From positions 6,988 to 70,987 of the forward strand of contig VMFP01000004.1 in NCBI GenBank assembly GCA_007376145.1: a stretch of DNA of 64,000 nucleotides, written 5' to 3'. The stretch is from Parcubacteria group bacterium Gr01-1014_38. GTDB taxonomy: Bacteria > Patescibacteriota > Andersenbacteria > UBA10190 > CAIZMI01. The position numbers were made by a program, and so were the translations under genes. Positions 2,478 through 39,703 of the stretch are shown piece after piece. Position 1 is the first letter of the stretch, and every line of letters begins with the position of its first letter. Under the pieces are notes generated by a model. The model ran no database searches. It was not told the origin of the DNA and saw only the letters and a program-made list of their open reading frames with translations.

Positions 2478-2485
2478 GCTATCGT

Positions 2486-2914
2486 TTACCGCTTCTGCCA
2501 CTGTGGCGCCCGGCGGGCGCGCTTGAGTCCAGGCTTTTTGCGTTCCTTTTCTCGCGGGTCGCGGGTGAGCATGTCGGTGTCGCGCAGCGGTTTGCGGAAG
2601 CCTTCTTCCTGCTTTTCGAGCGCACGGGCGATGCCGAGCTTCACGGCACCAGCCTGCGCGTGAATCCCTCCGCCGCTTACCCGTACCGACACATCGAATT
2701 TTCCCCAACTGCCGGTGATCTCAAACGGCTGGCGGACGGGAGTTTGGAGTGCGACGATCGGGAAATACTCCTCCCACGGTCGCTGATTAATAAGGAAGGT
2801 CGTGGCGTCCTTGTCCTTGCCGCCACCCAAACTTCCTGCCGGGAGGAGACGCACCCGAGCGACGGCGGTTTTCCGTCTCCCCACGCCTTCAACGTACCGA
2901 GCTTGGTCAGGCAT
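2486..2914 (-). CDS. rpsI: 30S ribosomal protein S9
   Basis: Translation ends ...KKPGLKRARRAPQWQKR, which matches the S9 family along its full length. Confidence 0.95.
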   Translation of the reverse strand: MPDQARYVEGVGRRKTAVARVRLLPAGSLGGGKDKDATTFLINQRPWEEYFPIVALQTPVRQPFEITGSWGKFDVSVRVSGGGIHAQAGAVKLGIARALEKQEEGFRKPLRDTDMLTRDPREKERKKPGLKRARRAPQWQKR

Positions 2915-5441: not shown

Positions 5442-5909
5442 TTACACGCGACGCCGTCTCGGCGGTCGGCACCCGTTATGAGGAATGGGAGTGTTATCGC
5501 GGATGGAGGTGAGCACAAATCCACCGTGGGCGGCGAGTGTACGCACGGCCGATTCCCGTCCGCTCCCGATCCCGCGAATCACGACGGATGCTTCCTTCAC
5601 TTGGAATGGCTCGACGCGTTTCAGGAGATCGCGAACCACCTCGTTCGCAACGTACGGAGTCGACTTGCGTGCTCCTTGGTAGCCAATGCGACCGGCGCTG
5701 CTCCACGCAATGACCTTTCCCTCCGGGTCTGCAGCCGTCACGAGGGTGTTGTTGTACGTCGATTGAATGTGAATTTTGACCGTGGGAACCCGACGCCGTC
5801 CAACCTTTTTCTTACTCTCCTTGGCCGACGGTTGCTCCGCGGACGACGCAGACATCGTTGCTTCGGTGGCGGGGGTTTCCGCAGGCATGGCTACCGCTCT
5901 TTGATGCAT
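5442..5909 (-). CDS. rpsK: 30S ribosomal protein S11
   Basis: …TPIPHNGCRPPRRRRV C-terminus and S11 core. N-terminal start is uncertain (alternative ATGs at 5888 and 5855). Confidence 0.9.
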   Translation of the reverse strand: MHQRAVAMPAETPATEATMSASSAEQPSAKESKKKVGRRRVPTVKIHIQSTYNNTLVTAADPEGKVIAWSSAGRIGYQGARKSTPYVANEVVRDLLKRVEPFQVKEASVVIRGIGSGRESAVRTLAAHGGFVLTSIRDNTPIPHNGCRPPRRRRV

Positions 5910-7017: not shown

Positions 7018-8526
7018 TCACGGTTGGGTTGCCACGTCGATGTGGATATTCCGGCGAAGCGAGGGAATGCGCTTGATCCAGACCGGCGAGAGACGAACCT
7101 CTGCGGTGCGCACGCCGGGAATCGCGCGGAGGAACGCGGCAGCATCATCCGCGGTTCTGCCTTGGAGCCGCTCACGCAGCTCATCGAAGTTGAGACGCGG
7201 GATCAGCGGGGTTTCTGAATGGAGCGAGAACTCGGTTCTCCCGTGGTCCCAGCGCACGTCGACGACCCGAAGGTCCTCAAAGGAGCTTTTCCGGACCGGA
7301 TCTTTCTCGTTCCCGATTCGCTGCTGAAGCAGATCGGTCAGAAATGCCTGGAGCGACGCAGCATCCGCGGTGAACGCCTCGCCGCGAACCGTGGTCCGAA
7401 TTCGGAAGGACTCTGCATCGGTCCCGACGGGGGGAGAGATTTCCGCCTCGCCAACGACCACGCGAGAAAGCTCCGGGCGCGAAAAGGACACCTGCTCCTG
7501 CCTCGAATGGGGCGTGGGCGCGGTACGCGCCTCACGTTGTATGAGTTCCAGGAGTTTGCGCTCGGCGTTCTCGCGAAGTGCGGTGGTACCCCGCTCAACG
7601 TCTGTGGTCGCGAGCTGGCGCACCAGCCGGTCAGTTCCGCCGTGCAGCGGACGCACGATTTCCCCGTAGAGAAGTCGACGGGATTCTGCCGGAAGCGCGG
7701 GTATGACGAGCCGCTGCGGGTCAAGATTTGCCTTGCTGCCTCCCTCCTCCGCCCGCACGGCAACCGACGCACGGCCCAAGGCTGGAACAATGACGTCGCG
7801 CTGCGTACGCACCACCACCCCCGACGTGCCCTGGAGCCGCGTGCGTGCTTTGATCCCCTGCTGGGCCGCCGTCTGGTTCACGATGTCGACCACGCCCTCG
7901 GCACGCGCTCCTTTCTCGACGGTGGTGTGAACGGGGAATTCCTCTTCGACTGCTTCCTCGATGCGGAGGAGGCGCGCGGGGTGTGTTCCGGTATCGCGTT
8001 GAGGTTCGCGCACACTCGCATCCAGTCGCAGGGTGAGATCAGCCGCAAATGGCTCGGTCGCGAGGACGAGACGGACGCGTGCCCGCGGCACCACGAACGT
8101 CACGACGCCGGTGAGAAGCATACCAGTGAGAACTGCGAAGACCGCCAGGGTCGCACGACCCCTCGGCGTCACGATGGGAAACCGCCGCCAGGGGAGCAAA
8201 GGGAGTTCACGGGGTCCTCCGGGGAGCAGGCGCCGCCTCCGGAAACTGGAAGAACCCGCCCGCTCCCGCGGCCCACGCTGATCAGCGCTGACCGTGGCGT
8301 GCCGTACTGCACGGTCAGCGAGCTGAAAGGTAATGTCCTTTCCAAAGTCTGCAGCGGTCGCTTGGAGGAGTCGGCGGACCAGCGGATCCGCCCGCAGAAC
8401 GGGATGTTGCCGGCAGTCGATTACGACGTGCGGGGCGGGAACTCGTTGGATCTTCTCCAGGATATCCGGCAGATCATCCGAGGCGGGGATGCGTAAGACG
8501 GGTGCCGTGCTCTGACTACTTGGCAT
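7018..8526 (-). CDS. hypothetical protein with a single transmembrane helix and a large C-terminal domain (possibly PilN/PilO-like)
   Basis: Long ORF with one hydrophobic helix (LAVFAVLTGMLLTGVVTFVV). The track ORF (to 8658) overlaps the upstream gene by about 140 nt; the internal ATG at 8526 was chosen to minimise overlap, so the start is uncertain. Confidence 0.4.
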   Translation of the reverse strand: MPSSQSTAPVLRIPASDDLPDILEKIQRVPAPHVVIDCRQHPVLRADPLVRRLLQATAADFGKDITFQLADRAVRHATVSADQRGPRERAGSSSFRRRRLLPGGPRELPLLPWRRFPIVTPRGRATLAVFAVLTGMLLTGVVTFVVPRARVRLVLATEPFAADLTLRLDASVREPQRDTGTHPARLLRIEEAVEEEFPVHTTVEKGARAEGVVDIVNQTAAQQGIKARTRLQGTSGVVVRTQRDVIVPALGRASVAVRAEEGGSKANLDPQRLVIPALPAESRRLLYGEIVRPLHGGTDRLVRQLATTDVERGTTALRENAERKLLELIQREARTAPTPHSRQEQVSFSRPELSRVVVGEAEISPPVGTDAESFRIRTTVRGEAFTADAASLQAFLTDLLQQRIGNEKDPVRKSSFEDLRVVDVRWDHGRTEFSLHSETPLIPRLNFDELRERLQGRTADDAAAFLRAIPGVRTAEVRLSPVWIKRIPSLRRNIHIDVATQP

Positions 8527-9709
8527 GCCACCGCAACTGGCGTTCCTGGATGGGTTGGTATACAGCGGAAGCAGCGGGTGCATGCTCGAGTCTCCGGAGC
8601 GCAATGTCGGCAAGCTGCTCGAGGAGCGCGAAAATTGTCGCCGGGATGCGCGCGGCAATCAGGCGTGACGGATCCACCGGAGTCATCACTGGGCGCGGCA
8701 AGAGCTGAACGATGCGCGGCGCTCTCGAGAGGTACAGCGTTGGATTCCGATGGAAGAAGAGTCGGTGAAGGAGCGTCGGCCAGAACCCGGCAACCACCAG
8801 TCGCACTGGCCACTCCGAGTCCGGAAGATGCGCAAAGAAGAGTCGAACGATGGTCCGAAAGAGGGGAAAGAGCGGACGAAAGACCCGGACAAGGATCCGC
8901 ACTCCCTCCGGCGAGAGCACGCTCGCGTCAGCGCGCTCGAGCAACGTGGCCGCTTCGCGCGGTGAACAGGACAGGGCGCGCACGAGCGTTCCGACGAGAA
9001 GATCACTTCCGAGCGGCGCGGTCCGCAACATCCGCAGAATGTCGCCGTCTCGTACCACAAACGTCAGATGGGACTCTTCGCTGACAAGCAAGCCAATCGG
9101 TTCGGACGTCTTTTGGAAGATTTCGCCTAAAAACACGGGGAGGAGCACCAGGTCACAGACTGGCACATCCGGCGGCGGCAAGGATTGGAACCGCGCCGGC
9201 GTTGGCGGAACGAGAAGGGATTCACCGAAGGCCGTCGGCCCTTGGAAGAGGGTGGTGACGGTCGCTTCAAGACCGTCACCACCGCGCGCTTCCTGCCAGG
9301 GACGTACCTCTTCCCGGAAGACCGCGAGATCTTCCAGCGGGCACCCAAAAAACTCTGCAGCTTCCTCGCGGAGTTGCTCCCGCGCGTGCCAGTGGGCTTG
9401 AAGCGTCAGCTCCCGAAGGTCCAGTGCGGTTCGCCCGGTGCCGGGAAGCGCGCGACCAATCGTGACGGAACCTCCCGCCAGTGCTGGCGTCGGCACAGCC
9501 AGAACGAGCGGTTCATGTGCGTGCCAGCCGAGGAGACGTTCCAGTGGCTCTCCGAGCGCCGCACCGGATTCCCAGGGAATCGTGGCGGCAGCCAGCAGCC
9601 GATGCTGACCGTCTCGACGTTCGACCCGAAGGAGATCAAGCTCTTCTCCCCGGGTACGCCCGACGACCACGCGGTGCTCACGTTTCGTTTTCGGAGAGAA
9701 CGGGGACAT
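8516..9709 (-). CDS. hypothetical protein (possibly PilM/actin-like ATPase fold)
   Basis: 397-aa ORF whose N-terminus (VVVGRTRGEELDLLRVERRDG..HRLLAAATIP) loosely resembles PilM/FtsA-type N-termini. No firm motif was recognised. Confidence 0.45.
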   Translation of the reverse strand: MSPFSPKTKREHRVVVGRTRGEELDLLRVERRDGQHRLLAAATIPWESGAALGEPLERLLGWHAHEPLVLAVPTPALAGGSVTIGRALPGTGRTALDLRELTLQAHWHAREQLREEAAEFFGCPLEDLAVFREEVRPWQEARGGDGLEATVTTLFQGPTAFGESLLVPPTPARFQSLPPPDVPVCDLVLLPVFLGEIFQKTSEPIGLLVSEESHLTFVVRDGDILRMLRTAPLGSDLLVGTLVRALSCSPREAATLLERADASVLSPEGVRILVRVFRPLFPLFRTIVRLFFAHLPDSEWPVRLVVAGFWPTLLHRLFFHRNPTLYLSRAPRIVQLLPRPVMTPVDPSRLIAARIPATIFALLEQLADIALRRLEHAPAASAVYQPIQERQLRWHAK

Positions 9710-12697: not shown

Positions 12698-14497
12698 TTA
12701 CACGTGGAGCCCGCCAAGCGGAGGGGGTGGCAGAGGAGGGGGCTGGACGCGCACGCGGCCTGACGCGATCGGGGATCGTCCCTGCTCCGCTCCACGCGCG
12801 CCGAGCTTGAAACGCTTGCGTTCGGCACGAACAATCGCCAAACACTCCGGGCAGTACTTTTCCTTCCCAGGAACTGGCTCAAAGGGAACCTCCGTTGCCC
12901 GTCCGCACCGATCGCAGGTGATGGGGTACGCCCGCTTCAGACGCTGCGGCTCTTCCTGTCGGAGACGATCCTCGAGACTCGCGATCTGCTGACCAGACGG
13001 CGCCACGACGGCGTTCTCCAAGGCTTCAACGGGCGGGAGCGCGCGCTCGGGCGTTCGTGTGTGTGGTCGAGGAAATTCTCGACGTTCACTGTGGTCGGAA
13101 CGTTGCTGTTCTTGGCGCCGCTCGAAGGTATAGGCGGCGGATTCTTCCTCCCCGGCTTGTCGGAAGGTCTTGGAACTCCACCGACTAATCTTCTCTTCCA
13201 CAACTTCACGGGGGCGACCATGGCGCTCTCGTGAAACCCGGATGATCTTCTCCGCTTCCCCGTACCATGGGGATCGTGAGCCGAGAGGAATCGTCATCAT
13301 GGAAAACGGCTTGCTCGCGGTCCCGTCAATCATGAGCTTGATGTAGGCATTGTACTTGTCGAGGTTCACGAGATCCGTTTCCGTAAAGTGCGGAGCGAAT
13401 TCCCGCTCGAGGAACTCCGCATCGTAGGCGCCAATTCGGAAGCACAGGGTGGTTCCCACGTTCCCGAAGACGGCGTCGCGCACTTCCTCTGACATCTGGG
13501 TAATGTACTGATGCGCCATGATGATATCCAGGCGGTACTTCCGAGCTTCGCTCAAAATAGTCGCAAACGACTCCGTGGCAAAATTCTGGAACTCGTCTAC
13601 GTACAGGTAGAAATCCTGACGCTGTTCCTCGGGAAGCTGCGCGCGGTCCATGGCGGCCAGTTGAATCTTCGTAATCATCATTGCCCCGAGGAGCGCGGCG
13701 TTGTCTTCTCCAATCTTCCCTTTTGAGAGATTCATGATGAAGACTTTTTTCTGGTCCATAATCTCCCGGAGATCAATGGTGGAGTTGGGCTGACCAATGA
13801 TGTTCCGGATGATGCTGCTCGTCAGAAACTGTCCGACTTTGTTTTGGATCGGGGCAATCGCCTCCTGGCGGAACCGCTCGTTGTACTGTGCGAATTCGTC
13901 CACCCAGAATGACTTCACAACGGGATCGCGGATGTTCGAGACAATCTCCTTCCGAAAGTCCTTGTCCACGAGAATCCGCAGGATACCGAGGAGCGTGTTC
14001 CCCGGCGAGTCCAGGAGGGCCAAAATGGTATTCCGGAGAATGTATTCGAGCCGGGGTCCCCACGAATCAGCCCAGAGCTTCTTGAAGACACCGACGAGAC
14101 CCGACGTAACGAGGTTTTTCTCCTGGGCGAAACGGGAGTCCTCCGGGCGGACCGTTTCTAGGACGTTGAAGGCGACGGGGAACTCCGCGTCTGACGGATC
14201 AAAGTAAATAACGTCGTTGATGCGGTTCGGTGATACGTAGTCGAGCATCGTGGTGGCAAAGTCCCCATGGGGATCAACAACTGCCAACCCCTCGCCGTGC
14301 TGAATATCTTGGATCGCCATGTTCTCGAGGACCGTCGTCTTTCCGGACCCAGTTTTTCCAATGACGTAGAGGTGTCGGCGGCGATCATCGCGCTTAATCC
14401 CGAATGCGCGCCGGACATTACGAAAGTTGGTTTCGCCGACAACCGTGATAAGTTCTGGTGAGACGGTAGGGCTCATGTGTGCGTTCCCAGTATACAA
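12698..14497 (-). CDS. TrwB/VirD4/TraD-like (DUF87-type) P-loop ATPase with C-terminal zinc ribbon
   Basis: Walker A VIGKTGSGKTT and Walker B-like LYVDEFQNF. C-terminal C-x2-C…C-x2-C (ITCDRCGRATEV…KYCPECL) precedes a Pro-rich tail. No N-terminal TM segment. Confidence 0.8.
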   Translation of the reverse strand: MYTGNAHMSPTVSPELITVVGETNFRNVRRAFGIKRDDRRRHLYVIGKTGSGKTTVLENMAIQDIQHGEGLAVVDPHGDFATTMLDYVSPNRINDVIYFDPSDAEFPVAFNVLETVRPEDSRFAQEKNLVTSGLVGVFKKLWADSWGPRLEYILRNTILALLDSPGNTLLGILRILVDKDFRKEIVSNIRDPVVKSFWVDEFAQYNERFRQEAIAPIQNKVGQFLTSSIIRNIIGQPNSTIDLREIMDQKKVFIMNLSKGKIGEDNAALLGAMMITKIQLAAMDRAQLPEEQRQDFYLYVDEFQNFATESFATILSEARKYRLDIIMAHQYITQMSEEVRDAVFGNVGTTLCFRIGAYDAEFLEREFAPHFTETDLVNLDKYNAYIKLMIDGTASKPFSMMTIPLGSRSPWYGEAEKIIRVSRERHGRPREVVEEKISRWSSKTFRQAGEEESAAYTFERRQEQQRSDHSERREFPRPHTRTPERALPPVEALENAVVAPSGQQIASLEDRLRQEEPQRLKRAYPITCDRCGRATEVPFEPVPGKEKYCPECLAIVRAERKRFKLGARGAEQGRSPIASGRVRVQPPPLPPPPLGGLHV

Positions 14498-14500
14498 GAG

Positions 14501-15838
14501 TTAGCCCTCCTCCAGCGGAGCAAACGGAACTTCCGGCGGCGGTTCACCTTTCTTTGCACGCGCGTGCTCAAGCGTGGGTGTCCGGACGTAACTCACCGGG
14601 AAGTGGAAAATGGTCGCGAGTTCTTCCACGTTCAAAATGTATCCCTTCTCGCGAAAGTATCGCTGCTGGTACCGCCGGAGCAAGCGGCGTTTCCGGAAGC
14701 GCTGCCGCTGCGCGCTTAAGCCATAGACGGGACGGGAGGTCGTAAACCGCCCATCGGGAAACAGGGTATTCAAGTTCTGCGACCCGAACGGCCTGAAGAT
14801 ACCAAAGATCTGTGGAATGCGGGCGCGGCGGATAAACTTCCCTTTGAGACCAATGGCCAAGGTCCGGATGATGCAGCCGTACCCCGACTTGCTCACGTTC
14901 CGCTGAATGGCGCGGACGATATCCGTCTCTCCCGGGGTAAGCCGGAGCATGCCAAGGTCCAGCGCCGAGGGTCGCTTCGCTTCCACTGCCGGTCCGGGAA
15001 GAAAGATGCCAACGACTGTTCCCAGGAACCCCAGCACCCGCTGGACTCGTGAGGGCTTTTTCTTGATGGCGCTCTCCTTGCCGGCCAGTTTCAGCGCCAG
15101 CTCCTCTCCCCTTTTTTGCCAGTCGCCGCGTGCAATGCCGGGAAGCTTGAGGCTGGGAATCTCTGGTCGAAAGAGAATCTGAATCCAGATTTCCTCACCA
15201 AGATTGAGCGCGCTCACGACTTCGGTCACCGCGGCCATCGTGTCCACAAACCGACCGTCCTCCGCAAATTCGTCTTCAAAATCTACGTAGGTTCGAAGGG
15301 GATAGGCATCGGGTTTGAGGAGAATCATCTCCGTCCCCCAAAGGTCGAAGTCTTTCCCGAGATCCGAGAGGGAGAACCGTTGAGTGTAGTCCTCCGTCTC
15401 GACAATCTCCGCGTCGGGGTACTGCGCGTACACCGCACTTTCAAAAAGTTGGCGAATGGCGGTAGGAATGCGGAAGATGAACGTGACGCCTTCGGACGTT
15501 CCGCGAATCTCCAGAGAGAACCATGCATGCATATACCCGTCGAGGTAGAGGTCGTAGAGGTCGGGAGGGCGAAATGCGCCGTGGAGAACATTGAAAACTT
15601 CCTCCATGGAGCGCGGAGTGCGCGTGTTCAGCTCCGGCACCCGCACCTGGAGAAAGGTCCACGGAAACGCCGCAAGGTACTGCCGCCGAATCGTCTCCAG
15701 GTACAGGGAAAACAGGATCATCAGGAAGAGCACGAGTCCGACAGCCGGACCGATGCGGACGAGTGCGACACCCAAAAACGCCGCGAAGTTCCCGGTGGCG
15801 TTCAGCAGAGTGGCGAGGAGAAGATCGAGGAGCGGCAT
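14501..15838 (-). CDS. membrane protein (two N-terminal TM helices), partner of the adjacent ATPase
   Basis: Hydrophobic N-terminus ([21 protein letters not shown]…[14 protein letters not shown]), then a soluble domain of about 380 aa. Separated from the ATPase gene by 4 nt. Confidence 0.6.
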
Positions 15839-31205: not shown

Positions 31206-32101
31206 ACGCGACGGACGCTCGGCGGCTTCCGTGAAAGTGAGGCGATGAGTGCCGTACCGAGGCTCACTGGCACGAGGGTGGAAAGCCCGATTGCCGCCCA
31301 CCAGCCCTGATGTTTCCACGTGTACCGAAGGGCACTGCGCGAAAACTGCCACGCGCGCCAGAGCGGAGAGACTTGGGCGAACGACGTCGCGCGATCATGG
31401 ACAACCTCCGCAGATGGCGTAAACCACGTTTCCCAGCCGGCCAACTTTGCGCGACGACAGTAGTCCACTTCCTCGAACCAAATCCAATACCCTTCGTCGA
31501 GAAGGCCAATGACGTCAACGACGCCGCGCCGGATGGCGAAGCACGCCCCCATCACTTGGTCAACCTTGGTGTCGCGGCCGTACGGAAAGTCCGCCATTTC
31601 GTAACGGCGTATTGCTGGAAAAGAAGTTTGCAGCCGCGCAAGACGGGTGAGAAGTAAGGCGAGCACGATCGGCGTCGGGAACCGACGAACCGATCGCTGC
31701 AGACTACCATCCGTATTCAGTAATTTCCCACCGACAATGCCGGCTTTCGGGTGAGTCGCAAAGAAGTTCATGAGTGCCGAAAAACTTCCGGGTCGCGGTT
31801 CTGTATCTGGGTTGAGAAGGAGAAGAATGTCGCCGCGTGCTTGCCGAAGGGCGATGTTATTTGCGCGGGCGAAGCCGACGTTTTTCGGAAGTGAAATATG
31901 AGTAAAAGGTTGGTAACTCTCGCGTGCGTGTGTCAGTGAATTATCCCGCGAGGCATTATCCACGACGAAGACTTCGTACTTGAAGGGTACGCACGTAGCT
32001 GCTCCATCCACAACCTTGAGAGCCGCGTACGGCAGCGCATCGAGACATTTCCGGAGCAGTGGTCCGGTATTCCAATTCACGATGATGATGGACAATTTCA
32101 T
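31202..32101 (-). CDS. glycosyltransferase family 2
   Basis: MKLSIIIVNWNTGPLL…VFVVDNASRDNS. Confidence 0.85.
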   Translation of the reverse strand: MKLSIIIVNWNTGPLLRKCLDALPYAALKVVDGAATCVPFKYEVFVVDNASRDNSLTHARESYQPFTHISLPKNVGFARANNIALRQARGDILLLLNPDTEPRPGSFSALMNFFATHPKAGIVGGKLLNTDGSLQRSVRRFPTPIVLALLLTRLARLQTSFPAIRRYEMADFPYGRDTKVDQVMGACFAIRRGVVDVIGLLDEGYWIWFEEVDYCRRAKLAGWETWFTPSAEVVHDRATSFAQVSPLWRAWQFSRSALRYTWKHQGWWAAIGLSTLVPVSLGTALIASLSRKPPSVRRV

Positions 32102-33198
32102 GCGCCTGCTTTTTCAATCACCTCGGCAGTCTGTTCCGCCGCTCGGTCCCACGTGAAGTGAGACGCGCGTACGTGCCCCTTCGCAACCATGTCCTGCCGG
32201 AGTGAGGAATCGCGGAGAATACGGAGGATCGCGCTCGCCATCGCCGACGGATCCGAGGGATCAACAAGAACCGCCGCATTGCCGACAACCTCTGGAAGCG
32301 AGGAAGTGTTCGAAGTAATCACCGGCGTTCCGGCCGCCATTGCTTCTAACACTGGCATACCGAAGCCCTCCGAGAAACTCGGGAGCACAAAGGCAGCAGC
32401 CATGGAGTACAAAGCTGCAAGATCGTCACGTGGAACACGTCGGAGAAGATGAATCGAATTTCGAACGGACGACGTTTCAATCCGAGCGAGAATCTGTGTT
32501 TCTTTCCACTCCCCGCCACCCGCGAAGACGAGATGCACGGCAGGCTCCGAGCGCTTCAGTTCCTCGAACGCAGTGATGAGACCAACAATGTTTTTCCGGG
32601 GTTGGAGCGCCCCAACAAACAACACATATCGCTCAGGAAGCTGGTATCGCTCCCGAATCCCTTCCCTTTCCTCGGCATTCTGAAATTGCTCTTGCGCCAC
32701 TCCGTGATGCACCACGGTGATGTCGGTCGGGGAGCGTCCATACGTACTCACTACATCGTCCTTCGTGTACTGCGAGACGGCGATGAGCTGGGTCGCGTTT
32801 CGCACCGCGTGCCGCGTGAAAAAAAGGAGGAGTGCGCGGTTCGCAAGAGTGTATGTCGCTGGATAATGGATGAACTCGAGATCATGGACCACCGCGACCG
32901 TCTTCATCGTTCGCGGTCGTATGAGAGGCAGCATCTGAATCGGCATGAACAAGACATCCGGCCGATCGCGACGAAGTGCTGCGGCAAAGAATCGCTGCGT
33001 CCAAAACGGACTTCCCGGGACCACACGAATTTCACCTACGATCGTCACTCCACGTGGCGACGCTGGAAGATATGTCGTGACCTCGTGTCCGCGGTCGCGC
33101 AACAGGCGAGAAAGCCGCGGGAGAAGCTCTCCGGCATACACGCTCGGCCCCTCGAAGCGGTCCGCCGCGAGGTCCGAGCCATCAAGCGCAATCCGCAC
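32098..33198 (-). CDS. glycosyltransferase family 4
   Basis: GT4 C-terminal motifs (…PSFSEGFGMPVLEAMAAGTPVITS…). Likely start is GTG at 33198 (VRIALDGSDL…, the typical GT4 MRIALD start); the track's TTG at 33276 is upstream. Confidence 0.8.
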   Translation of the reverse strand: MRIALDGSDLAADRFEGPSVYAGELLPRLSRLLRDRGHEVTTYLPASPRGVTIVGEIRVVPGSPFWTQRFFAAALRRDRPDVLFMPIQMLPLIRPRTMKTVAVVHDLEFIHYPATYTLANRALLLFFTRHAVRNATQLIAVSQYTKDDVVSTYGRSPTDITVVHHGVAQEQFQNAEEREGIRERYQLPERYVLFVGALQPRKNIVGLITAFEELKRSEPAVHLVFAGGGEWKETQILARIETSSVRNSIHLLRRVPRDDLAALYSMAAAFVLPSFSEGFGMPVLEAMAAGTPVITSNTSSLPEVVGNAAVLVDPSDPSAMASAILRILRDSSLRQDMVAKGHVRASHFTWDRAAEQTAEVIEKAGA

Positions 33199-33217
33199 GC
33201 GACGCAGCCTAGGTGAG
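33179..33217. repeat. direct repeat copy 1 (GT4 start region: CCATCAAGCGCAATCCGCACGCGA-N2-NAGCCTAGGNGAG)
   Basis: 39-nt segment spanning the GT4 GTG start; it recurs at 34051-34089 (3 mismatches), and its 21-nt core recurs at 35676-35696. Confidence 0.85.
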
Positions 33218-33320
33218 TTTCTTCCTTTTGACAACGGCTCTATGTGTTGAATGGGTTGAACGGGCCGAGCAACCAATTGACAAAATCCTGTCCGGCAGAT
33301 ATACTGAAAGCACTAAACGT

Positions 33321-33356
33321 GGGGCGGATATTTCGCATGTCCGCCCCGTTTTTATT
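33321..33356 (-). terminator. rho-independent terminator immediately after the NYN stop codon (bidirectional-looking)
   Basis: GGGGCGGA-N11-TCCGCCCC stem (33321-33328 / 33340-33347), flanked by an A-tract upstream and TTTTTATTT downstream on the plus strand. Confidence 0.6.
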
Positions 33357-33987
33357 TCTTGGGCTCCTCGAACCTTAAGGCTTTTTCGAGCCGAACAAAG
33401 TCTCGGAAGTTCGCACCAGCAAATTTGCGGATCTCACGTGCAGTCCTAGAACCACGTGCGAGAATAATGATTTCCTCTCTTTCCTCACGAAGATACTTAA
33501 GGACCGGAAGGAAATCTCCGTCCCCCGAGAGAATAACGGCACGATCAAAATTTTCTTTCTCTTTCATAAGCCGGAAGGCCATATCGACGTCACAATTCGC
33601 TTTGCGTTTCGTGCTGCCGTCGTCCTGGTCGTACAACTTCACGGGTTTTAAGTAGAGCTCGTACCCGAAGCTCTGGAGCTTTCGGTAAAAGCGCACTCGC
33701 TGGAGATGTCGCCCAAGAAGGAGTAATTCCGCCTCGTTGAGTTCTTTGCCTTCGTTCTTAATACGCTCAGTGAGATAGTCTTCCAAGTCTTCAAGCGGTA
33801 CCGACTCAAACGCAAGGTAATCAAACGGAAACGTGTGAATCTCAACCCCACCAAAATACAGCGCGCGGGTTACCCCGTACTTCTTGCGCAGGTACTGCAG
33901 AAGTTTTCGATAATCAATTTTCCAACCAAGACTCTTCTCGCCTCCATAGAAGAGGTTTGATGCATCGATAAACGCAAGTGTTCTCAC
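33352..33987 (-). CDS. NYN-domain (LabA-like, PIN-fold) ribonuclease
   Basis: AFIDASNL…CDVDMA…ILSGDGDF acidic motifs of the NYN family. GTG start at 33987 overlaps the stop of the upstream short ORF (GTGA). AT-rich codon usage. Confidence 0.8.
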   Translation of the reverse strand: MRTLAFIDASNLFYGGEKSLGWKIDYRKLLQYLRKKYGVTRALYFGGVEIHTFPFDYLAFESVPLEDLEDYLTERIKNEGKELNEAELLLLGRHLQRVRFYRKLQSFGYELYLKPVKLYDQDDGSTKRKANCDVDMAFRLMKEKENFDRAVILSGDGDFLPVLKYLREEREEIIILARGSRTAREIRKFAGANFRDFVRLEKALRFEEPKK

Positions 33988-34050
33988 GCCGAGAAGTGTA
34001 ACATTGCTTTGTATTTCGCGTGTGCTATGCCCGCTTCCCTAGATTGCAAC

Positions 34051-34089
34051 CCATCAAGCGCAATCCGCACGCGAGGTAGCCTAGGCGAG
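34051..34089. repeat. direct repeat copy 2 (GT4 start region)
   Basis: Matches copy 1 at 36 of 39 nt. Its in-frame GTG opens a 28-codon ORF (VRIALDGLQSREAGIAHAKYKAMLHFSA*) that is translationally coupled to the NYN gene. Confidence 0.85.
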
Positions 34090-34208
34090 GCTTGCTCTGT
34101 TGGCAACCGACGATCTTGACGTGGGCAGTCCTGCAATATATCCTCGGCGTGGTGTTGTCCTTTCTCACGCCGCAACAAGCGCGGCATAGTTCTCACGGAG
34201 TATGTCAC

Positions 34209-35171
34209 ATGCCTGACCCAAGCACGCAGCGACCACCACACCCTCTCCTAACCCGAGAACTGCGTCTGATCCGGACCTGGAAGGAGTGGAAAAAACTCTG
34301 GGACGAGGAGGTGCATCCGGAACGCCTGCTCGGCCTTCTCCACTTCGGCTTCAATGTCACAGAGTTTGACGCAGGAGAGTGGCCTGAACGAGTTCTCCTC
34401 TACCTTTCCATCGCAGATGGACATGCGTGGGAAATCTCGAAGCCAGGAACGCAGAAATATGAAATCTCCTGGTCAACCTTCGGAAAACCCACGACATGGT
34501 CAAAGGTGCGTCAGCTGATCGCCCAAAAAGCGTTCAAGGAACTCTGTCAGCACCTCTTCAAATACACCCGGTCGCATCATGATGAAGAACCGTCCTGGCT
34601 TCAGCCACTCACCCAGAACTCCTGCCAACTCTTGGATGCGGTACTCGCGTTCTTCCTCCTGCATGACACGCTCGAACCTCAGCTACGCAATCTCCCGCGA
34701 GACGACAAGAGTCATGAGTACGGACTGACCGTCTCCTTCCTCCTCAGCCTGTGTGACTTCGGATGGAAGCTTCGCACGCTCCGCGAGTATGGAGCCGATA
34801 TAGAAGTCGCGGAGAACCTCCGACAGCGCCGTCCGCAGTTCATTCGCGTACTTGCAGGTCTCAAAAGGCTCGATCTCGTGACGACGAAGAGCATGGAACT
34901 CGACGAGGCGGACTGCGACATGCTACGGAAGATCGCACTCGGCACGGAGCTCTACCTCCCCACCGAGCCGAACTGGGGAGAGAAGCACCGGCTTCCAAAA
35001 ACGCTGGAAGAAGCGGTCGCCGGCGGATCTTCTGCAGCCAGACTCCTACTCCTGCATAAGATAAAACTCCAGGAGAAAGCCCGCTTTGCGCAGCTTCGAA
35101 AACTCGCAGCCACGCAGGAAGATGCTTCTCTACAGATCGAACGACTAAAAACTTCGCAGACAAAGTCCTAA
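34209..35171 (+). CDS. hypothetical protein (320 aa), no recognisable domain
   Basis: ATG at 34209 preceded by GGAG. The frame is open from TTG 34092, which would add a hydrophobic N-terminus. Followed by a terminator. Confidence 0.55.
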   Translation: MPDPSTQRPPHPLLTRELRLIRTWKEWKKLWDEEVHPERLLGLLHFGFNVTEFDAGEWPERVLLYLSIADGHAWEISKPGTQKYEISWSTFGKPTTWSKVRQLIAQKAFKELCQHLFKYTRSHHDEEPSWLQPLTQNSCQLLDAVLAFFLLHDTLEPQLRNLPRDDKSHEYGLTVSFLLSLCDFGWKLRTLREYGADIEVAENLRQRRPQFIRVLAGLKRLDLVTTKSMELDEADCDMLRKIALGTELYLPTEPNWGEKHRLPKTLEEAVAGGSSAARLLLLHKIKLQEKARFAQLRKLAATQEDASLQIERLKTSQTKS

Positions 35172-35194
35172 ATGGAGGCACAAATGCAAATGCT

Positions 35195-35222
35195 CCCCGC
35201 CGCAATCGCGACGGGGTTTTTT
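35195..35222 (+). terminator. rho-independent terminator of the 320-aa gene
   Basis: CCCCGCCGC-AATC-GCGACGGGG followed by TTTTTT. Confidence 0.6.
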
Positions 35223-35257
35223 CTTCTCATCGTTGCAATCCTCTGCCCCCCAAAACA

Positions 35258-35297
35258 CGAGTACAAAAGAAACCGCCGCGAGGAAATCCTCGCGGCG
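35258..35297 (-). terminator. rho-independent terminator of the 96-aa minus-strand gene
   Basis: Perfect 10-bp stem CGCCGCGAGG-AAAT-CCTCGCGGCG, with a U-tract on the minus-strand RNA (plus-strand AAAAGAAA at 35264-35271). Confidence 0.55.
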
Positions 35298-35304
35298 TGG
35301 GGGT

Positions 35305-35595
35305 TCACGATTTGGGAAGTCTGACAATACGATTCCCCGCAATCACCCATGGGCTCGGGTCGAAGCGAACAACAAACGACGGGACGGGAGGCCAGGCGCG
35401 AGCAGGATCTTCTTCGATGACTGTCCCGGCAAAGTCCTGCTCGCACTCTTTCTCAACAACATGGGCACTCACCATTCGTATTCCCTTCTCCCCGTGAGGA
35501 TAGATGGCCCCAATCACCCATCCTTCCAGGAGAAGCTCGACGATAGGGGTGCCCGGGAGCACAGAGCGCTCCGCGATTCGGAAATCAATAGGCAT
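35305..35595 (-). CDS. hypothetical protein (96 aa)
   Basis: ORF flanked by a terminator and preceded by repeat copy 3 about 80 nt upstream. Confidence 0.4.
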   Translation of the reverse strand: MPIDFRIAERSVLPGTPIVELLLEGWVIGAIYPHGEKGIRMVSAHVVEKECEQDFAGTVIEEDPARAWPPVPSFVVRFDPSPWVIAGNRIVRLPKS

Positions 35596-35675
35596 CAGTC
35601 TCTCCTTTCAGTGTCTTTCGTTCTGGGGATCGAAGGTGAAATGAACAAGCTACACAAGACGCTCAAAAATCCGAA

Positions 35676-35696
35676 CCATCAAGCGCAATCCGCACG
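35676..35696. repeat. direct repeat copy 3 (21-nt core CCATCAAGCGCAATCCGCACG)
   Basis: Exact 21-nt match to the cores of copies 1 and 2. Encodes a mini-ORF VRIALDGSDF* on the minus strand. Confidence 0.8.
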
Positions 35697-35780
35697 GGCA
35701 CACTCTACGCAGAGCAGCCGTTCCTGACAAGGCACAGGAGAAGATGAAATATTCCTTCCGGCAATTCCTCATTTCCAAGA

Positions 35781-35804
35781 AAAGTGCTTTCATATAAGAG
35801 AGCA
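35781..35804. repeat. palindromic repeat A (AAAGTGCTTTCATATAAGAGAGCA) containing the TrpR-like GTG start
   Basis: Imperfect palindrome TGCTTTCAT/AAGAGAGCA. Matches 36211-36234 at 21 of 24 nt. Confidence 0.8.
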
Positions 35805-36206
35805 GTGAGCAGAACTTACCGAAGAAAACTTGATGCACCACGCGCTCTCACACTGATTGAGCAAACGTTCCACACGGCCTCCCGTCAGAAGAATTTTCGG
35901 CGCTTTCTTACGGAGTTCTTTACCGTGAACGAGCGCGACACTTTTGCTCAACGCCTCCGTATCGCCTGGTTTCTTCATGCGGGCCACAGCTTCCGACTTA
36001 TTCAAGACGAAACGGGTGCCTCGTTTCGTACCATTACGACTCTCGACCGCTGGCTGAAAAAGCAGAATCCGCGCTACCGGCGGATCATTCCGCTCCACAG
36101 ACATAGACACCGAAAGCACGCCGCCCAACGTTTTCCAGGAGACCGGCCATTGCCCGGGAGCATCAAAGCATTCACACGGAGTCTCCTCGGCACGGATATT
36201 CTCTAA
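35784..36206 (+). CDS. TrpR/YerC-YecD-like helix-turn-helix regulator
   Basis: …NERDTFAQRLRIAWFLHAGHSFRLIQDETGASFRTITTLDRWLKK… fits the TrpR-like HTH fold. GTG start lies inside the palindromic repeat. Confidence 0.55.
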   Translation: MLSYKRAVSRTYRRKLDAPRALTLIEQTFHTASRQKNFRRFLTEFFTVNERDTFAQRLRIAWFLHAGHSFRLIQDETGASFRTITTLDRWLKKQNPRYRRIIPLHRHRHRKHAAQRFPGDRPLPGSIKAFTRSLLGTDIL

Positions 36207-36210
36207 ATTC

Positions 36211-36234
36211 AAAGTGCTCTCTTACAAGAGAGCA
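36211..36234. repeat. palindromic repeat B (AAAGTGCTCTCTTACAAGAGAGCA)
   Basis: Perfect 9-bp arms TGCTCTCTT-AC-AAGAGAGCA. Re-encodes VLSYKRA, the first 7 codons of the TrpR-like gene. Confidence 0.8.
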
Positions 36235-36274
36235 CATTCAAGTTTTCTAATTCACGCTACGACCGTCGGGATCG

Positions 36275-37069
36275 CTATTTCCACGCCAGGATGGCCCGGA
36301 CGCTTCTTTCGTCTTTGAGCTTTCCGTTTGGGCTAAGTCCGCGTAGCATCCTCGCTAGTTCCTTTTCAAATATCTTTATCCTGTCTCCGAATAACTCTCT
36401 GCGAGCAAATGATGTGGAGTAGAGATTACCAATGATCTGGTGAATGTTCCGCTCCACGCGCTGTTTATAATTGTGAGTTTCAATCTTCGAAAACGAGCAT
36501 TCCATGATGATGTCCTCAAACCGACGTGTATCAGTGGGAAACGTCCCCGTGCCCGCACGGCGCTCCTCTCCGAGATACGTCTTAACGAGTTTCACGATTC
36601 CTTGCTGCCAGTCCTTATCGCTCTTCCAGATATCCTGGCGGCTCACCACCGCAAGTCCGCCACCCGGCATGAGAAGTTCATAAACCTTTGCAAGAACCTT
36701 TTTCTTCTCCATCCAATGGAGCGCGGTGCCGATCGTCACGAGTCTGAACGAGCCAGGACGGTCTACGTACTCCTCCGCCGTGCTCTTCACCCATGAGATA
36801 TCCCTCGCGCCCGCTTTCGCGGCGCGCTGCTTCCCCTCCTCGATCATATCCGCATCGGGCTCAACTGCCACCACTTCCTCAAAGTCCCTGCACAGCAGCA
36901 CGGCGAGTTCTCCCGTTCCCGTTCCTAAGTCGAGGAGTCGGCCAGTGCCGTCCAGGGAAAATTTCTTTCTGAGCAATTCAAAGAAGCTCTGTGGATACGG
37001 TACTCGATAACGGGCATAGTACCAGGCTGCCCCTCTGAAGAGTGTCTCGTCGTATACGCTCGTGCTCAT
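36275..37069 (-). CDS. class I SAM-dependent methyltransferase
   Basis: Motif I LDLGTGTGELAV and Methyltransf_11-like core. Confidence 0.85.
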   Translation of the reverse strand: MSTSVYDETLFRGAAWYYARYRVPYPQSFFELLRKKFSLDGTGRLLDLGTGTGELAVLLCRDFEEVVAVEPDADMIEEGKQRAAKAGARDISWVKSTAEEYVDRPGSFRLVTIGTALHWMEKKKVLAKVYELLMPGGGLAVVSRQDIWKSDKDWQQGIVKLVKTYLGEERRAGTGTFPTDTRRFEDIIMECSFSKIETHNYKQRVERNIHQIIGNLYSTSFARRELFGDRIKIFEKELARMLRGLSPNGKLKDERSVRAILAWK

Positions 37070-37076
37070 ATAGGGA

Positions 37077-38279
37077 CTAATCGGAAAGAAGATGTTCCAA
37101 CACAGTTACACGCATGTCCCACGTATGGCGCTTGGATTCTGCGATGCGGGCGTCCCTGCCTTCTGCGCCGCGCTCAAGCGCTTCTTGAATGCCGCGGGCG
37201 AACGCGTCCGCAGATGACGTGAGGGTCACAAGGTGGCGGTACGGCTCCAGCGACGGGAGACCAGACGCGACGATGGGTTTTCCGGCGGCGAGAAATTCCC
37301 AAAATTTGAGGGGAAAACTCGCGCGGTTATACGGGCTGTCGCGGTACGGAATGATCGCGACGTCAAACGCGTGCACGTAGCTTGGAACTTCCTCGCGCGG
37401 TTTTGGCCCGAGAAAGTGTACGTTCGAGAGCTGGCCAAGTTTTCGAACGCTTTCCGCGCCGCCGGTTCCGGAATAGTCTACTGGACCGATGAGGACGAAG
37501 TGCCACTCGGGGTGTTCACTGGCGATCTTCTGAAGCAATTCAACATCCACCTTATAGACATCGAGGGCTCCGACGGTCCCAATGCGCGGATGCGGAATGG
37601 CTGCAATATCGCGCGGCTCATGCGCGGGCCTTCCGGAAAACGCTTCAACGTCGGCGGCGTTGGGAACGAGCTGCACATTGCGATGAATTTTTGAGAATCG
37701 TTCAAGGAGTGGCGAAGTCGTCACGGAAATTACAGCCGCGCGCGCCGCAATCGCGCTCTCTTCTTTCTCAACGAGCGCCGAGTTTCTTTCTATCCCGGCT
37801 TGGACGCGATGATCATCCACACAGTCATAGACGACGCGAGACTTCGGAAAGTCATCGAGAAATTCTGCGGCTTCGGTGTCGTAGATCAAGAGGACCGGCT
37901 CTCGAAAACCGAGCTCCCACGCGTGCAAACGGACATGCCACGCATTCCACAGAACGTGATTCAGCCGTCCGACGAAGGGGATTCGGCGTGAACCGGGGAT
38001 GAGATTTGCTTGCGCCTGCACCCAGAGATTCGGCCGCACGCGCTGCGGCGCGACCTGGCGAAGAAGCCAGTGCCAGCCTCCGCCAAGGCTACGGCCGGTC
38101 TTCGACCAGCGGCCCCCGGGATACCGAAAGAGCATCCGAAGAAGAAACAGACGCGGTTCCACGTAGAGCACGCGCCAGCCGCGTTCGGCCAAACTCGTCG
38201 CAATGTGCTGGCGATTTGTCCAGAGCGGCGCGTCATAGAGCGCGCCGGCGAAGACGATGACGTCTTTCGAGTGATTCAT
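37077..38279 (-). CDS. glycosyltransferase family 4 (GT-B)
   Basis: C-terminal GT-B signature …FDVAIIPYRDSPYNRASFPLKFWEFLAAGKPIVAS…. Confidence 0.75.
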   Translation of the reverse strand: MNHSKDVIVFAGALYDAPLWTNRQHIATSLAERGWRVLYVEPRLFLLRMLFRYPGGRWSKTGRSLGGGWHWLLRQVAPQRVRPNLWVQAQANLIPGSRRIPFVGRLNHVLWNAWHVRLHAWELGFREPVLLIYDTEAAEFLDDFPKSRVVYDCVDDHRVQAGIERNSALVEKEESAIAARAAVISVTTSPLLERFSKIHRNVQLVPNAADVEAFSGRPAHEPRDIAAIPHPRIGTVGALDVYKVDVELLQKIASEHPEWHFVLIGPVDYSGTGGAESVRKLGQLSNVHFLGPKPREEVPSYVHAFDVAIIPYRDSPYNRASFPLKFWEFLAAGKPIVASGLPSLEPYRHLVTLTSSADAFARGIQEALERGAEGRDARIAESKRHTWDMRVTVLEHLLSD

Positions 38280-39703
38280 GCGGGGGAAACGAACAACCGC
38301 CGGGCGCGGTGGATCAGCACGGGAAACGCCACGACGACAATCCAGACCGCGATGCCCGCAAAGAGCGCGGCGCGCGCAGCGAGCGGTAGCGGAACAAACG
38401 CCGTCGCCGCCCCTGCCGCGATGACCGGAAGAAGCAAGGTGCGCGGGAAGAGCGAGAGGTGCATGCGGAAGGCAGAAATCCCAATTGCAGTCGCGAGCCC
38501 AACCAGAGCGCCAAGGAGCAGTCCAAGATTCGCAGCGCCTTCGGGCATCTGCCGAAGCGTAAGCATGACTCCAAGCGTCCCAACAGCCATCACGCCAAAT
38601 CCCGCGGCACGGAAGTTCGCACGACGCGCGGGAACAAACACCGTATTCGACGCGATATCCAGAAACGCAAACGCGGCGTAGGCCCAGGTCACAGCGGGAA
38701 TGAACCGGAGTGCCCCAAGATACTGCTGACCGGCGAGGATCGGCACCAGCTCGCGCGCGAACAGCACAAGGAAGAGACCACCGAGCAGCGTCACGGCACC
38801 TACGTCCTCGAGGGTACGCACCGCGAGGCGGCGGAATGCCTCACGGCTTTGGGCAAATGCTTTACTCAAGAACGCCAGGTTCACTTCACCAAGCGCCGCG
38901 GCGAGCAGCTGAAGCTTCGACCCAAAGGTTGTTGCCGCGGTGAACAGCCCGACAACCTCGGGACTCACCCACCGCCCGAGGAGGAGAATGGGCACGCGCT
39001 GCCAGACCACGGAAAGAATGCGCGCCACGTAGGTCCATGCCCCTGTATGAAGAATGTCAGCGAGTACGCCGCGGACCTCCGCCGGTGGCGGATGCGCGAG
39101 GGTCCCGCCGAGTGCCCGCCGCAGAAATAGGGCGAGGAGTGTACTAAAGATGAGCGCCGCCAGAATGACCGCCTCAAAGAATCCGTTCAGGTCTCGCCAC
39201 CAGACGAGCCCCGCAAAGATCGGCACGTTTACGACGGCCGTGATGAGTTGGAGAGCGTACAGCGTCCCGAAGGCGCGCTGCCCGGTGTACGCGCCGCCGA
39301 GAATCCCTTGCATGCCATGGAGGATGAGAATGAGGCTCATGAGACGCACCAAGTGCGGAATCTCGGGGAATGGGTAGAGCCGCGTGCCGATCCATGTTGC
39401 TGCGAGAGCGAGGAGCACCGAAATCGGCACCGTGATCAGGAGCCGAAACCACAGCGAGACCCAGAAGACCGCAGCTTTCCGCTGCGGCGTGTCGGCCACG
39501 GCGATTTCGCGGATCGCCGCATCCACCGCGCCGACGTGCTGCGAGACGCCGACGAGCGCGCCGAGGGAGATGACAATCCCAACAATTCCGTACGCTTCGG
39601 GACCGAGGAGCCGGAGGACAATCGCGGTTTGCACGATGCCGAGCGCCGCCGTCGCCACTTTGGTGAGAACCCCCCAAATTTGGACCGTCCGAATGTCAGT
39701 CAT
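38276..39703 (-). CDS. Wzx-like oligosaccharide flippase (MOP superfamily)
   Basis: About 14 predicted TM helices; N-terminal flippase-like segment. Confidence 0.75.
   Translation of the reverse strand: MTDIRTVQIWGVLTKVATAALGIVQTAIVLRLLGPEAYGIVGIVISLGALVGVSQHVGAVDAAIREIAVADTPQRKAAVFWVSLWFRLLITVPISVLLALAATWIGTRLYPFPEIPHLVRLMSLILILHGMQGILGGAYTGQRAFGTLYALQLITAVVNVPIFAGLVWWRDLNGFFEAVILAALIFSTLLALFLRRALGGTLAHPPPAEVRGVLADILHTGAWTYVARILSVVWQRVPILLLGRWVSPEVVGLFTAATTFGSKLQLLAAALGEVNLAFLSKAFAQSREAFRRLAVRTLEDVGAVTLLGGLFLVLFARELVPILAGQQYLGALRFIPAVTWAYAAFAFLDIASNTVFVPARRANFRAAGFGVMAVGTLGVMLTLRQMPEGAANLGLLLGALVGLATAIGISAFRMHLSLFPRTLLLPVIAAGAATAFVPLPLAARAALFAGIAVWIVVVAFPVLIHRARRLFVSPA

Follow-up and report, generated by a model that had tools for sequence, protein, structure and literature searches.

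Orphaned promoter and start stubs of a glycosyltransferase gene at an insertion hotspot in a Parcubacteria polysaccharide cluster

Introduction

How does the beginning of one gene come to stand three times in a row, with unrelated genes in between? The question is raised by a polysaccharide gene cluster of the uncultivated Parcubacteria group bacterium Gr01-1014_38, a member of the candidate phyla radiation (CPR). The cluster lies in a 64-kb stretch of contig VMFP01000004.1 (positions 6,988 to 70,987; 64,000 nucleotides, nt), referred to here as the window. A short segment containing the start codon of the GT4 glycosyltransferase gene recurs twice upstream of that gene, within a variable segment that is bordered by GT4 and a second glycosyltransferase gene, GT400. 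An initial annotation took the repeats for the signature of repeated site-specific integration into the 5' end of GT4, or of an integron-like recombination hotspot. The comparison with related loci described below leads to a different answer: the extra copies are promoter and start stubs of GT4, probably displacement scars at a recombination hotspot.

Three copies of the GT4 start region

The 21-mer CCATCAAGCGCAATCCGCACG occurs on the plus strand at 33179-33199 (copy 1), 34051-34071 (copy 2), and 35676-35696 (copy 3), three exact copies in 64 kb where 0 are expected. No further match is present in the window, even at 3 mismatches, and 0 of 100 shuffles matched. Chance low-complexity matches, which the initial annotation had named as the finding that would overturn it, are thereby set aside. 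On the minus strand, the 21-mer reads C followed by GTG CGG ATT GCG CTT GAT GG and encodes VRIALDG, with the GTG at 33198 in copy 1, 34070 in copy 2, and 35695 in copy 3. When the three repeats are aligned, copies 1 and 2 share 24 nt exactly and 57 nt at 81% identity, reaching upstream of the GTG. Between copies 1 and 3, the shared stretch is 27 nt long, has a single synonymous mismatch, and runs into the gene (VRIALDGSD). The repeats partition two blocks as first described, with the NYN gene and its terminator between copies 1 and 2, and the genes for a 320-aa protein (p320) and a 96-aa protein (p96) between copies 2 and 3.

The GTG is the true start of GT4, because the GT4 orthologues all begin with M/V-[RHQ]-IALDGSDLAA. 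The encoded GT4 protein is a 100% match to one of Parcubacteria group bacterium Gr01-1014_38. Every copy is composed of a complete sigma-70-like promoter, with the -10 box 6-7 nt before the GTG, and the first 7-9 codons of GT4 (Table 1). The motif TTGNCA-N16-18-TANNNT-N5-8-[AG]TG is found in the window at the three copies alone (0.02 expected), and the same promoter-start motif sits at the GT4 start in eight of nine related loci. The copy 2 stub opens a mini-open reading frame (mini-ORF) of 28 codons, whose stop overlaps the NYN start codon (GTGA). The copy 3 stub opens a mini-ORF of 10 codons, VRIALDGSDF and a stop, followed by the Shine-Dalgarno sequence and ATG of p96.

With a -10 box only 6-7 nt upstream of the GTG, the GT4 mRNA is most likely leaderless. 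Alignments and motif scans (the same eight of nine relatives) show that this fixed distance is kept across GT4 orthologues while the spacers vary. This is comparative evidence for a GT4 operon that is predicted to be leaderless in CPR bacteria; a literature search on leaderless genes in CPR returned nothing useful.

A hypervariable spot between GT400 and GT4

Nine related Parcubacteria loci were traced via GT4 orthologues that are 62-80% identical. In all nine, the order is flippase, GT400, variable segment, GT4, GT2, and Wzy, and the GT400 orthologues (67-83% identical) keep the same relative position. The content between GT400 and GT4 takes six different arrangements among the nine. Loci L037, L042, L043, and L044 have a divergent TrpR-like gene only (GT400-TrpR-GT4), and L004 has an internally deleted TrpR remnant. 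L005 carries p320, L003 carries p96 and p320, and L006 carries TrpR, a Nudix gene, and p320. The closest relative, L036 (GT4 80% identical), has an unrelated 225-aa gene. The window carries a methyltransferase (MTase) gene, TrpR, p96, p320, and NYN.

The GT400-GT4 gap is a genuine strain-variable insertion hotspot, because nine relatives differ in gene content at exactly this place, near-empty states included. Insertion at the 5' end of GT4, as originally proposed, is borne out. The empty site that had been predicted, with GT4 abutting the MTase gene, is absent; the simplest state is GT400-TrpR-GT4. The MTase gene was not found in any of the nine relatives, by tblastn or in gene tables, and is an extra gene unique to the window. 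A repeat-bounded p96-p320 cassette fares no better, since relatives carry this module at the same site without repeats, an arrangement that the initial annotation itself had listed as counting against it. No second GT4 start or core copy is present in the nine relatives, even at 5 mismatches in 26 nt.

A scan of a genome collection with GT4 as the query gave one close relative, L006. A scan of metagenomes with a 20-mer gave six matches, with L036 as the sole relative. The other five are chance matches in unrelated genes encoding ...VRIALDG..., and the scan gave no family of cassettes sharing the core.

The Nudix-box protein of L006 (6250-6849, minus strand), encoded between TrpR and p320, is another unrelated accessory gene at the hotspot. 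The same contig also encodes a protein of Parcubacteria Gr01-1014_106.

Native contexts of the stubs

The window region from TrpR to copy 3 can be aligned with the L042 sequence between TrpR and GT4. Included are CTTGTCA, the TAGAGT -10 box, and the palindrome at the start of TrpR, and homology stops after +26. For the region from p320 to copy 2, the aligned counterpart is the p320-to-GT4 intergenic region conserved in L003 and L006, with homology stopping after +20. Copies 2 and 3 are read as orphaned former GT4 starts because each sits where relatives have the GT4 start. By these alignments, copy 3 is the former GT4 start beside TrpR, copy 2 is the former GT4 start beside p320, and copy 1 is the current start.

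The promoters of the three copies are not the same allele. The copy 1 promoter is closest to that of L036, with 94% identity from ~-38 to +110. The copy 3 promoter is of the L042/L004 type, and its upstream sequence is not homologous to that of copy 1. Between copies 1 and 2, 7 of 36 promoter positions are mismatched, against 0 of 24 in the core. Had the two begun identical and diverged evenly by ~19%, the chance of a clean 24-nt core is calculated here as ~0.006. The 24-nt core is also identical in the live GT4 genes of L036 and L003, and 1 nt off in that of L043, in genes that are 63-76% identical overall. Because the promoter differs, the core does not, and the core is kept in such distant live genes, the copies are most simply read as stemming from different alleles of the locus, with a common conserved start and differing promoter spacers, and not from an old in-situ duplication. 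A closer affinity of the copy 2 promoter to the L003 allele was considered and dropped, as the promoter alleles are all about equally far apart (4-7 of 37 positions).

The GT4 gene itself is uneven in its relationships. Between window 32098-33258 and L036 1146-2306, two tracts stand out at 94% (-38 to +110) and 96% (+750 to +870) against a background of ~70-75% identity, and which relative is nearest depends on the position in the gene. Such mosaicism is suggestive of recombination tracts anchored in GT4, with the caveat that the relatives compared are distant. Nothing in the window or among the loci compared matches the filler sequences at the junctions. Upstream of p96 in L003, a decayed stub was also considered, and its TAGnnTGTG similarity is too weak to claim.

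A further boundary lies in the neighboring flippase gene (38276-39703, minus strand). Over 12.1 kb, ENA contig L002 does not differ from the window save in its final 180 nt, where 43 differences are packed (window 38438-38617). Since the differences crowd into this short stretch, a second strain allele of the Wzx-type flippase appears to start there, which would be another recombination boundary in the cluster.

Proposed origin of the stubs

The best reading, and a reasonably probable one, is successive displacement or insertion via recombination between divergent alleles, the three repeats being three generations of one gene start. We infer the mechanism and the order of events, taking the repeats, the promoter anatomy, the native contexts, and the hotspot as observed. 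The GT4 genes of this clade would be transcribed from a conserved promoter (TTGYCA, 17 nt, TAGNNT). Accessory blocks would have joined just inside the resident GT4 frame twice, once after +26 and once after +20. The far side of each block would have borne a complete GT4 promoter and start, so that GT4 remained intact, while the prior promoter and first 7-9 codons stayed behind as a stub. Copy 3, beside the resident TrpR-like gene, would hold the oldest position, with copy 2 beside p320 and copy 1 as the working start. The order of positions would be directly readable because each insertion left the prior promoter and first codons in place.

Each event most likely combined a homologous crossover in the conserved GT4 gene with an illegitimate join at the other end, the incoming allele coming from a related strain. 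This process is named homology-facilitated illegitimate recombination (HFIR), or 'displacement', and would make a dedicated recombinase unnecessary. In this reading the stubs, still complete as promoters, have probably been turned over to the newcomers, copy 3 driving p96 and copy 2 reading into NYN through the 28-codon mini-ORF. Longer GT4 duplicates may have been lost by recombination between direct repeats, leaving the very short stubs; this step is our suggestion. Exchange between strains is favored because the copies are of different alleles, GT4 is mosaic, and no recombinase is encoded among the ORFs scanned. If so, the locus is a readable record of accessory-gene accrual at one hotspot in a cell-surface polysaccharide cluster of uncultivated Parcubacteria.

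Several points weigh against this origin. Both truncations fall within the first 9 of 366 codons, and random illegitimate joins need an extra argument to explain this, either selection or the instability of longer direct repeats. The donor allele, with NYN directly upstream of a GT4 promoter or with the exact p96/p320 allele, was not found among the loci compared. The stubs have barely decayed (0/20 and 1/26 differences), which would mean a recent origin or selection to keep them. No sampled relative is closer than 80% identity in GT4, which weakens the order and direction of events. Finally, the transcription starts are predicted ones, and the recombinase scan covers the island and ~40 further ORFs of the window.

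Alternative origins

Duplicative insertion in situ is an unlikely alternative. It could take the form of a Campbell-type single crossover in the core by DNA carrying a short promoter/start homologue. A variant would have a ~58-nt promoter/start segment duplicated by replication slippage or staggered-break repair, with the copies diverging later. The segment from ~-38 to +20 does stand on both sides of the 815-nt NYN insert, and the core, the expected place for a crossover, is free of mismatches. The uneven spread of differences between copies 1 and 2 given above, with its low probability under even divergence, argues against this account. The event at copy 3 was not a simple duplication, as its promoter belongs to another allele, and a Campbell substrate with a truncated GT4 start presupposes a prior event of the like kind.

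Site-specific integration, the first proposal of the initial annotation, is now quite unlikely. The 21-nt core would be an att site, with the integrase encoded elsewhere in the genome. The NYN and p96-p320 blocks would be integrase-less cis-mobilisable elements in tandem, each with a replacement GT4 promoter and start. Three direct repeats with an identical core bound the two blocks, as attL and attR sites would, and the two junctions lie within 6 nt of one another. The GT4-proximal arms of both blocks are 81% alike, as related attP arms would be, and the NYN block is lower in GC content. What stands of the proposal is that the repeats mark insertions at the 5' end of GT4; the site-specific mechanism is not supported. 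No integrase, transposase, or recombinase is encoded in the island (Pfam, PHROGs, and PADLOC), as had been noted from the start, or by ~40 other ORFs scanned across the 64-kb window (Pfam), and within that scope the recommended search for recombinases came up empty. The p96/p320 blocks of L003, L005, and L006 and the 225-aa block of L036 have no second core copy. The NYN modules of L038, L039, L040, and L041, loci outside the window in other CPR genomes, have other neighbors and no flanking direct repeats. No inverted repeat lies in or around the core, which hence has no dyad symmetry. Each stub runs upstream into sequence orthologous to the native GT4 upstream regions of relatives, and across lineages the exact core and the presence of an insertion are uncorrelated. 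The island has no similarity to phage or plasmid records, and a phage or plasmid origin was rejected for want of a DNA match.

The second proposal, an integron-like hotspot, is not supported, given the lack of an IntI-type recombinase among the scanned ORFs and of attC-like imperfect palindromes. The inverted-repeat and terminator scans return terminator hairpins and the TrpR palindromes alone.

Another account is functional. The promoter, leaderless start, and short ORF would be a selected module that co-controls p96, NYN, and the GT4 operon, and the copies would be maintained, or spread by gene conversion, for that function and not as passive scars. All three copies retain a complete, correctly spaced promoter and start codon, and the stubs are nearly undecayed. 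In the consensus scan, p96 has no promoter candidate ahead of it other than copy 3, and the stop of the copy 2 mini-ORF overlaps the NYN start. No relative, though, has more than one copy, the promoter of the L003 p96 gene is in a like position but lacks the GT4 start sequence, and NYN has an extended -10 promoter of its own, as in other genomes. As an origin for the repeats this account is improbable: it explains why stubs are retained, not how they arose, and is better seen as an addition to displacement than as an alternative. The stubs could plausibly have been kept as donated promoters, which would also explain the lack of decay, and the arrangement suggests that newly gained genes are expressed from reused orphan promoters.

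It is highly improbable that the GT4 start is a dedicated capture site, that is, an unrecognised recombination system, integrase-independent or with its recombinase encoded elsewhere, that inserts small modules behind a leaderless promoter and start. If true, such a site would restore the GT4 start with every insertion and pass the former promoter on to the new module, in the manner of an integron attI and Pc without IntI or attC. An assembly artefact or chimera formed at a shared k-mer has a negligible chance: the exact repeat, 21 nt, does equal a common minimum assembler k-mer, but Logan SRR8863434 and ENA ERZ27284378 (assembled with k=31-type and k=139/141 methods) agree with the window base for base over the repeats and the rest of the island with k-mers longer than the repeat, and each copy occupies an orthologous, interpretable context.

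Genes and elements of the variable segment

The features are collected in Table 1. GC content is 0.48-0.49 in the NYN segment, 0.475-0.55 in the TrpR/MTase segment, 0.54-0.585 in the p96/p320 segment, and 0.58-0.64 in the flanks. The initial description of the island as compositionally foreign applies to the NYN and TrpR/MTase segments, which are clearly below the flanks, and not to the p96/p320 segment.

Table 1. Features of the GT4 locus in the window.
Feature	Coordinates	Strand	Remarks
GT4 glycosyltransferase, live, 366 aa	32098..33198	-	Pfam Glycos_transf_1/Glyco_transf_4; GTG start 33198
Copy 1, working GT4 promoter and start	33173..33234	-	Shared core 33179-33199
Copy 1 promoter	-35 33229-33234; -10 33206-33211	-	TTGTCA; 17-nt spacer; TAGGCT; 7 nt to GTG 33198; read from sequence
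Small-RNA-like element, part of NYN module	33277..33357	+	Convergent with NYN 3' end
NYN (LabA/DUF88-like) gene	33352..33987	-	Pfam NYN; low GC
Copy 2, orphaned GT4 promoter/start stub	33984..34106	-	GT4 homology ends after +20 (34051)
Copy 2 promoter	-35 34101-34106; -10 34078-34083	-	TTGCCA; 17-nt spacer; TAGGCT; 7 nt to GTG 34070
Divergent intergenic region, p320/former GT4 start	34107..34208	.	Aligns with p320-to-GT4 intergenic region of L003 and L006; L005 weaker
p320, 320 aa	34209..35171	+	Tiny clade-restricted family, alpha-helical-repeat-like
p96, 96 aa	35305..35595	-	Shine-Dalgarno AAGGAG; own terminator 35274-35297
Copy 3, orphaned GT4 promoter/start stub	35663..35730	-	GT4 homology ends after +26 (35670)
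Copy 3 promoter	-35 35725-35730; -10 35702-35707	-	TTGTCA; 17-nt spacer; TAGAGT; 6 nt to GTG 35695
TrpR/YerC-like regulator	35781..36238	+	With palindromes; ORF 35784-36206; Pfam Trp_repressor
S-adenosylmethionine-dependent methyltransferase (MTase)	36275..37069	-	Pfam Methyltransf_25/11
GT400 glycosyltransferase, other border of variable region	37077..38279	-	Pfam

NYN is a member of a family with 2943 homologues that are 70-84% identical across CPR. Its own extended -10 (TGTTACACT) lies 7 nt before its GTG. Elsewhere, NYN genes sit in unrelated genomic contexts, after rplU or purD. The window region homologous to other NYN loci is ~33298-34004.

The small-RNA-like element begins with TTGACA (33277-33282), a 17-nt spacer, and TATACT (33300-33305), a promoter that matches at 11/12 in the consensus scan, which also calls a terminator for the element. 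The following ~45 nt are made up of ACTAAACGTG, a hairpin (GGGGCGGA..TCCGCCCC), and a T-run, with a fold of -21.2 kcal/mol and a z of -4.4. The unit is convergent with the NYN 3' end in 5/5 NYN loci, the window and four other CPR loci, and is found on the minus strands of L038 (5634-5723), L039 (1234-1323), and L040 (2899-2988). Across loci, TTGACA and the 17-nt spacer are invariant, followed by TAYRCT, a nearly invariant ACTAAACGTG, and an 11-13-bp hairpin whose stem shows G-C to A-U and G-U changes. The element has no Rfam match, and the motif is absent from the viral contigs searched. One possible role is that of an antisense or antitoxin-like partner RNA of the NYN nuclease-like protein; another, plainer one is that of a bidirectional terminator whose promoter is conserved.

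p320 is divergent from GT4 in several relatives and has a promoter candidate on the plus strand, TTGACG-17-TATCCT (34116-34144, consensus scan). The possibility of a hidden recombinase was rejected on structure, which is that of a generic alpha-helical repeat protein.

p96 has an orthologue in L003 that is 68% identical, and no known domain was found in Pfam. The family is composed of ~95-aa proteins in 71 cluster representatives (relatives P0255-P0325) without a Pfam match. Among them, P0274 carries a fused response-regulator receiver domain, a hint that p96 may be an output or effector domain. An excisionase-like role was rejected on the same two grounds, the lack of a known domain and the receiver fusion. 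A 50-aa ORF at 35172-35324 (plus strand), a gene in the public annotation, runs over the terminator hairpins of p320 and p96 and is probably not a gene.

The probable start of the TrpR-like gene is the GTG at 35805. The gene is flanked by two palindromes, GTGCTCTC-N6-GAGAGCAC, at 35781-35804 and 36215-36238, identified by an inverted-repeat search. Bracketing palindromes occur in every lineage, e.g., at 5716-5745 and 6140-6168 in L006 and at 1388-1407 and 1858-1882 in L037. In relatives the palindrome is TGTTCTC-N6-GAGAACA, differing from that of the window. The upstream palindrome overlaps a -10-like TATAAG, 6 nt before the GTG. Because of this overlap and the bracketing, the gene may be leaderless and autoregulated, with an operator that co-varies from lineage to lineage. 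A TrpR operator inside the copy 3 promoter was also considered; the resemblance is that of a weak half-site and nothing more.

Elsewhere in the window

Two other regions lie far from the GT4 locus. A protein with an M.Eco57I-type methyltransferase C-terminal domain is encoded at 82-1308 (plus strand) next to a PLD-family nuclease-like protein at 1305-2708 (minus strand), a pair that looks restriction-modification-like. A TrwB/VirD4/HerA-like coupling ATPase with a C-terminal zinc finger is encoded among housekeeping genes at 12698-14497 (minus strand). It adjoins two ORFs without a Pfam match, 14501-15838 and 7018-9709.

Comparison with known systems

Successive displacement, with HFIR as the proposed process, is described for the orphan arrays of effector-immunity genes in Rhs, contact-dependent inhibition (CDI), and type VI secretion system (T6SS) loci (Kirchberger et al. 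2017, PMC5361080; Jackson et al. 2009 cited there). The GT4 locus resembles these arrays in that a conserved gene serves as the homologous anchor and truncated remnants are stacked in order beside the live gene. In both, on the displacement reading, incoming modules from other strains displace the resident, content is strain-variable, and no integrase is involved. In the toxin loci, the constant part is 5', and the orphans are 3' toxin tips and immunity genes that pile up downstream. At GT4, by contrast, the gene body is constant and the orphans are 5' promoter/start stubs with 20-26 coding nt that pile up upstream. The locus thus mirrors the 3' orphan arrays. The inserted genes are also unrelated accessory genes and not alternative versions of the displaced gene, and the setting is a polysaccharide cluster in a CPR host.

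Tandem att-flanked islands are a second point of comparison. Cis-mobilisable elements (CIMEs) lack an integrase and are bounded by att repeats, and accretion of CIMEs with integrative and conjugative elements (ICEs) is known in streptococci. The three direct repeats, the two adjacent blocks at a gene end, and the regeneration of that end are shared with the GT4 locus. Unlike such islands, the locus has no integrase among the scanned ORFs, relatives carry the same block without repeats, and the blocks are 0.8-1.6 kb. Its repeat arms are orthologous to native promoter alleles, and the target is a 5' end with a promoter, not a tRNA or 3' end. Direct repeats around small islands therefore need not signal integrase-mediated mobility, a caution for annotation.

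An integron, composed of attI, Pc, and attC cassettes, is alike in that one site gathers small promoter-less or single-gene units and the resident promoter ends up driving the newcomers. Besides the missing IntI and attC-like palindromes, the GT4 locus differs in that its cassettes lie in both orientations with their own promoters and terminators.

Flexible genomic islands, replacement or additive, are known in surface-polysaccharide gene clusters. Like them, the GT4 locus has conserved glycosyltransferase genes on either side of a segment that varies from strain to strain and would be swapped through recombination in these flanks. In contrast, the variable genes at GT4 are mostly not for glycosylation (NYN nuclease-like, TrpR-like, Nudix, and unknowns), and the junction scars are unusually legible. 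The 5' promoter/start stubs of this CPR polysaccharide cluster are best read as displacement scars at a recombination hotspot, the product of a known type of process and not of a new class of mobile element.

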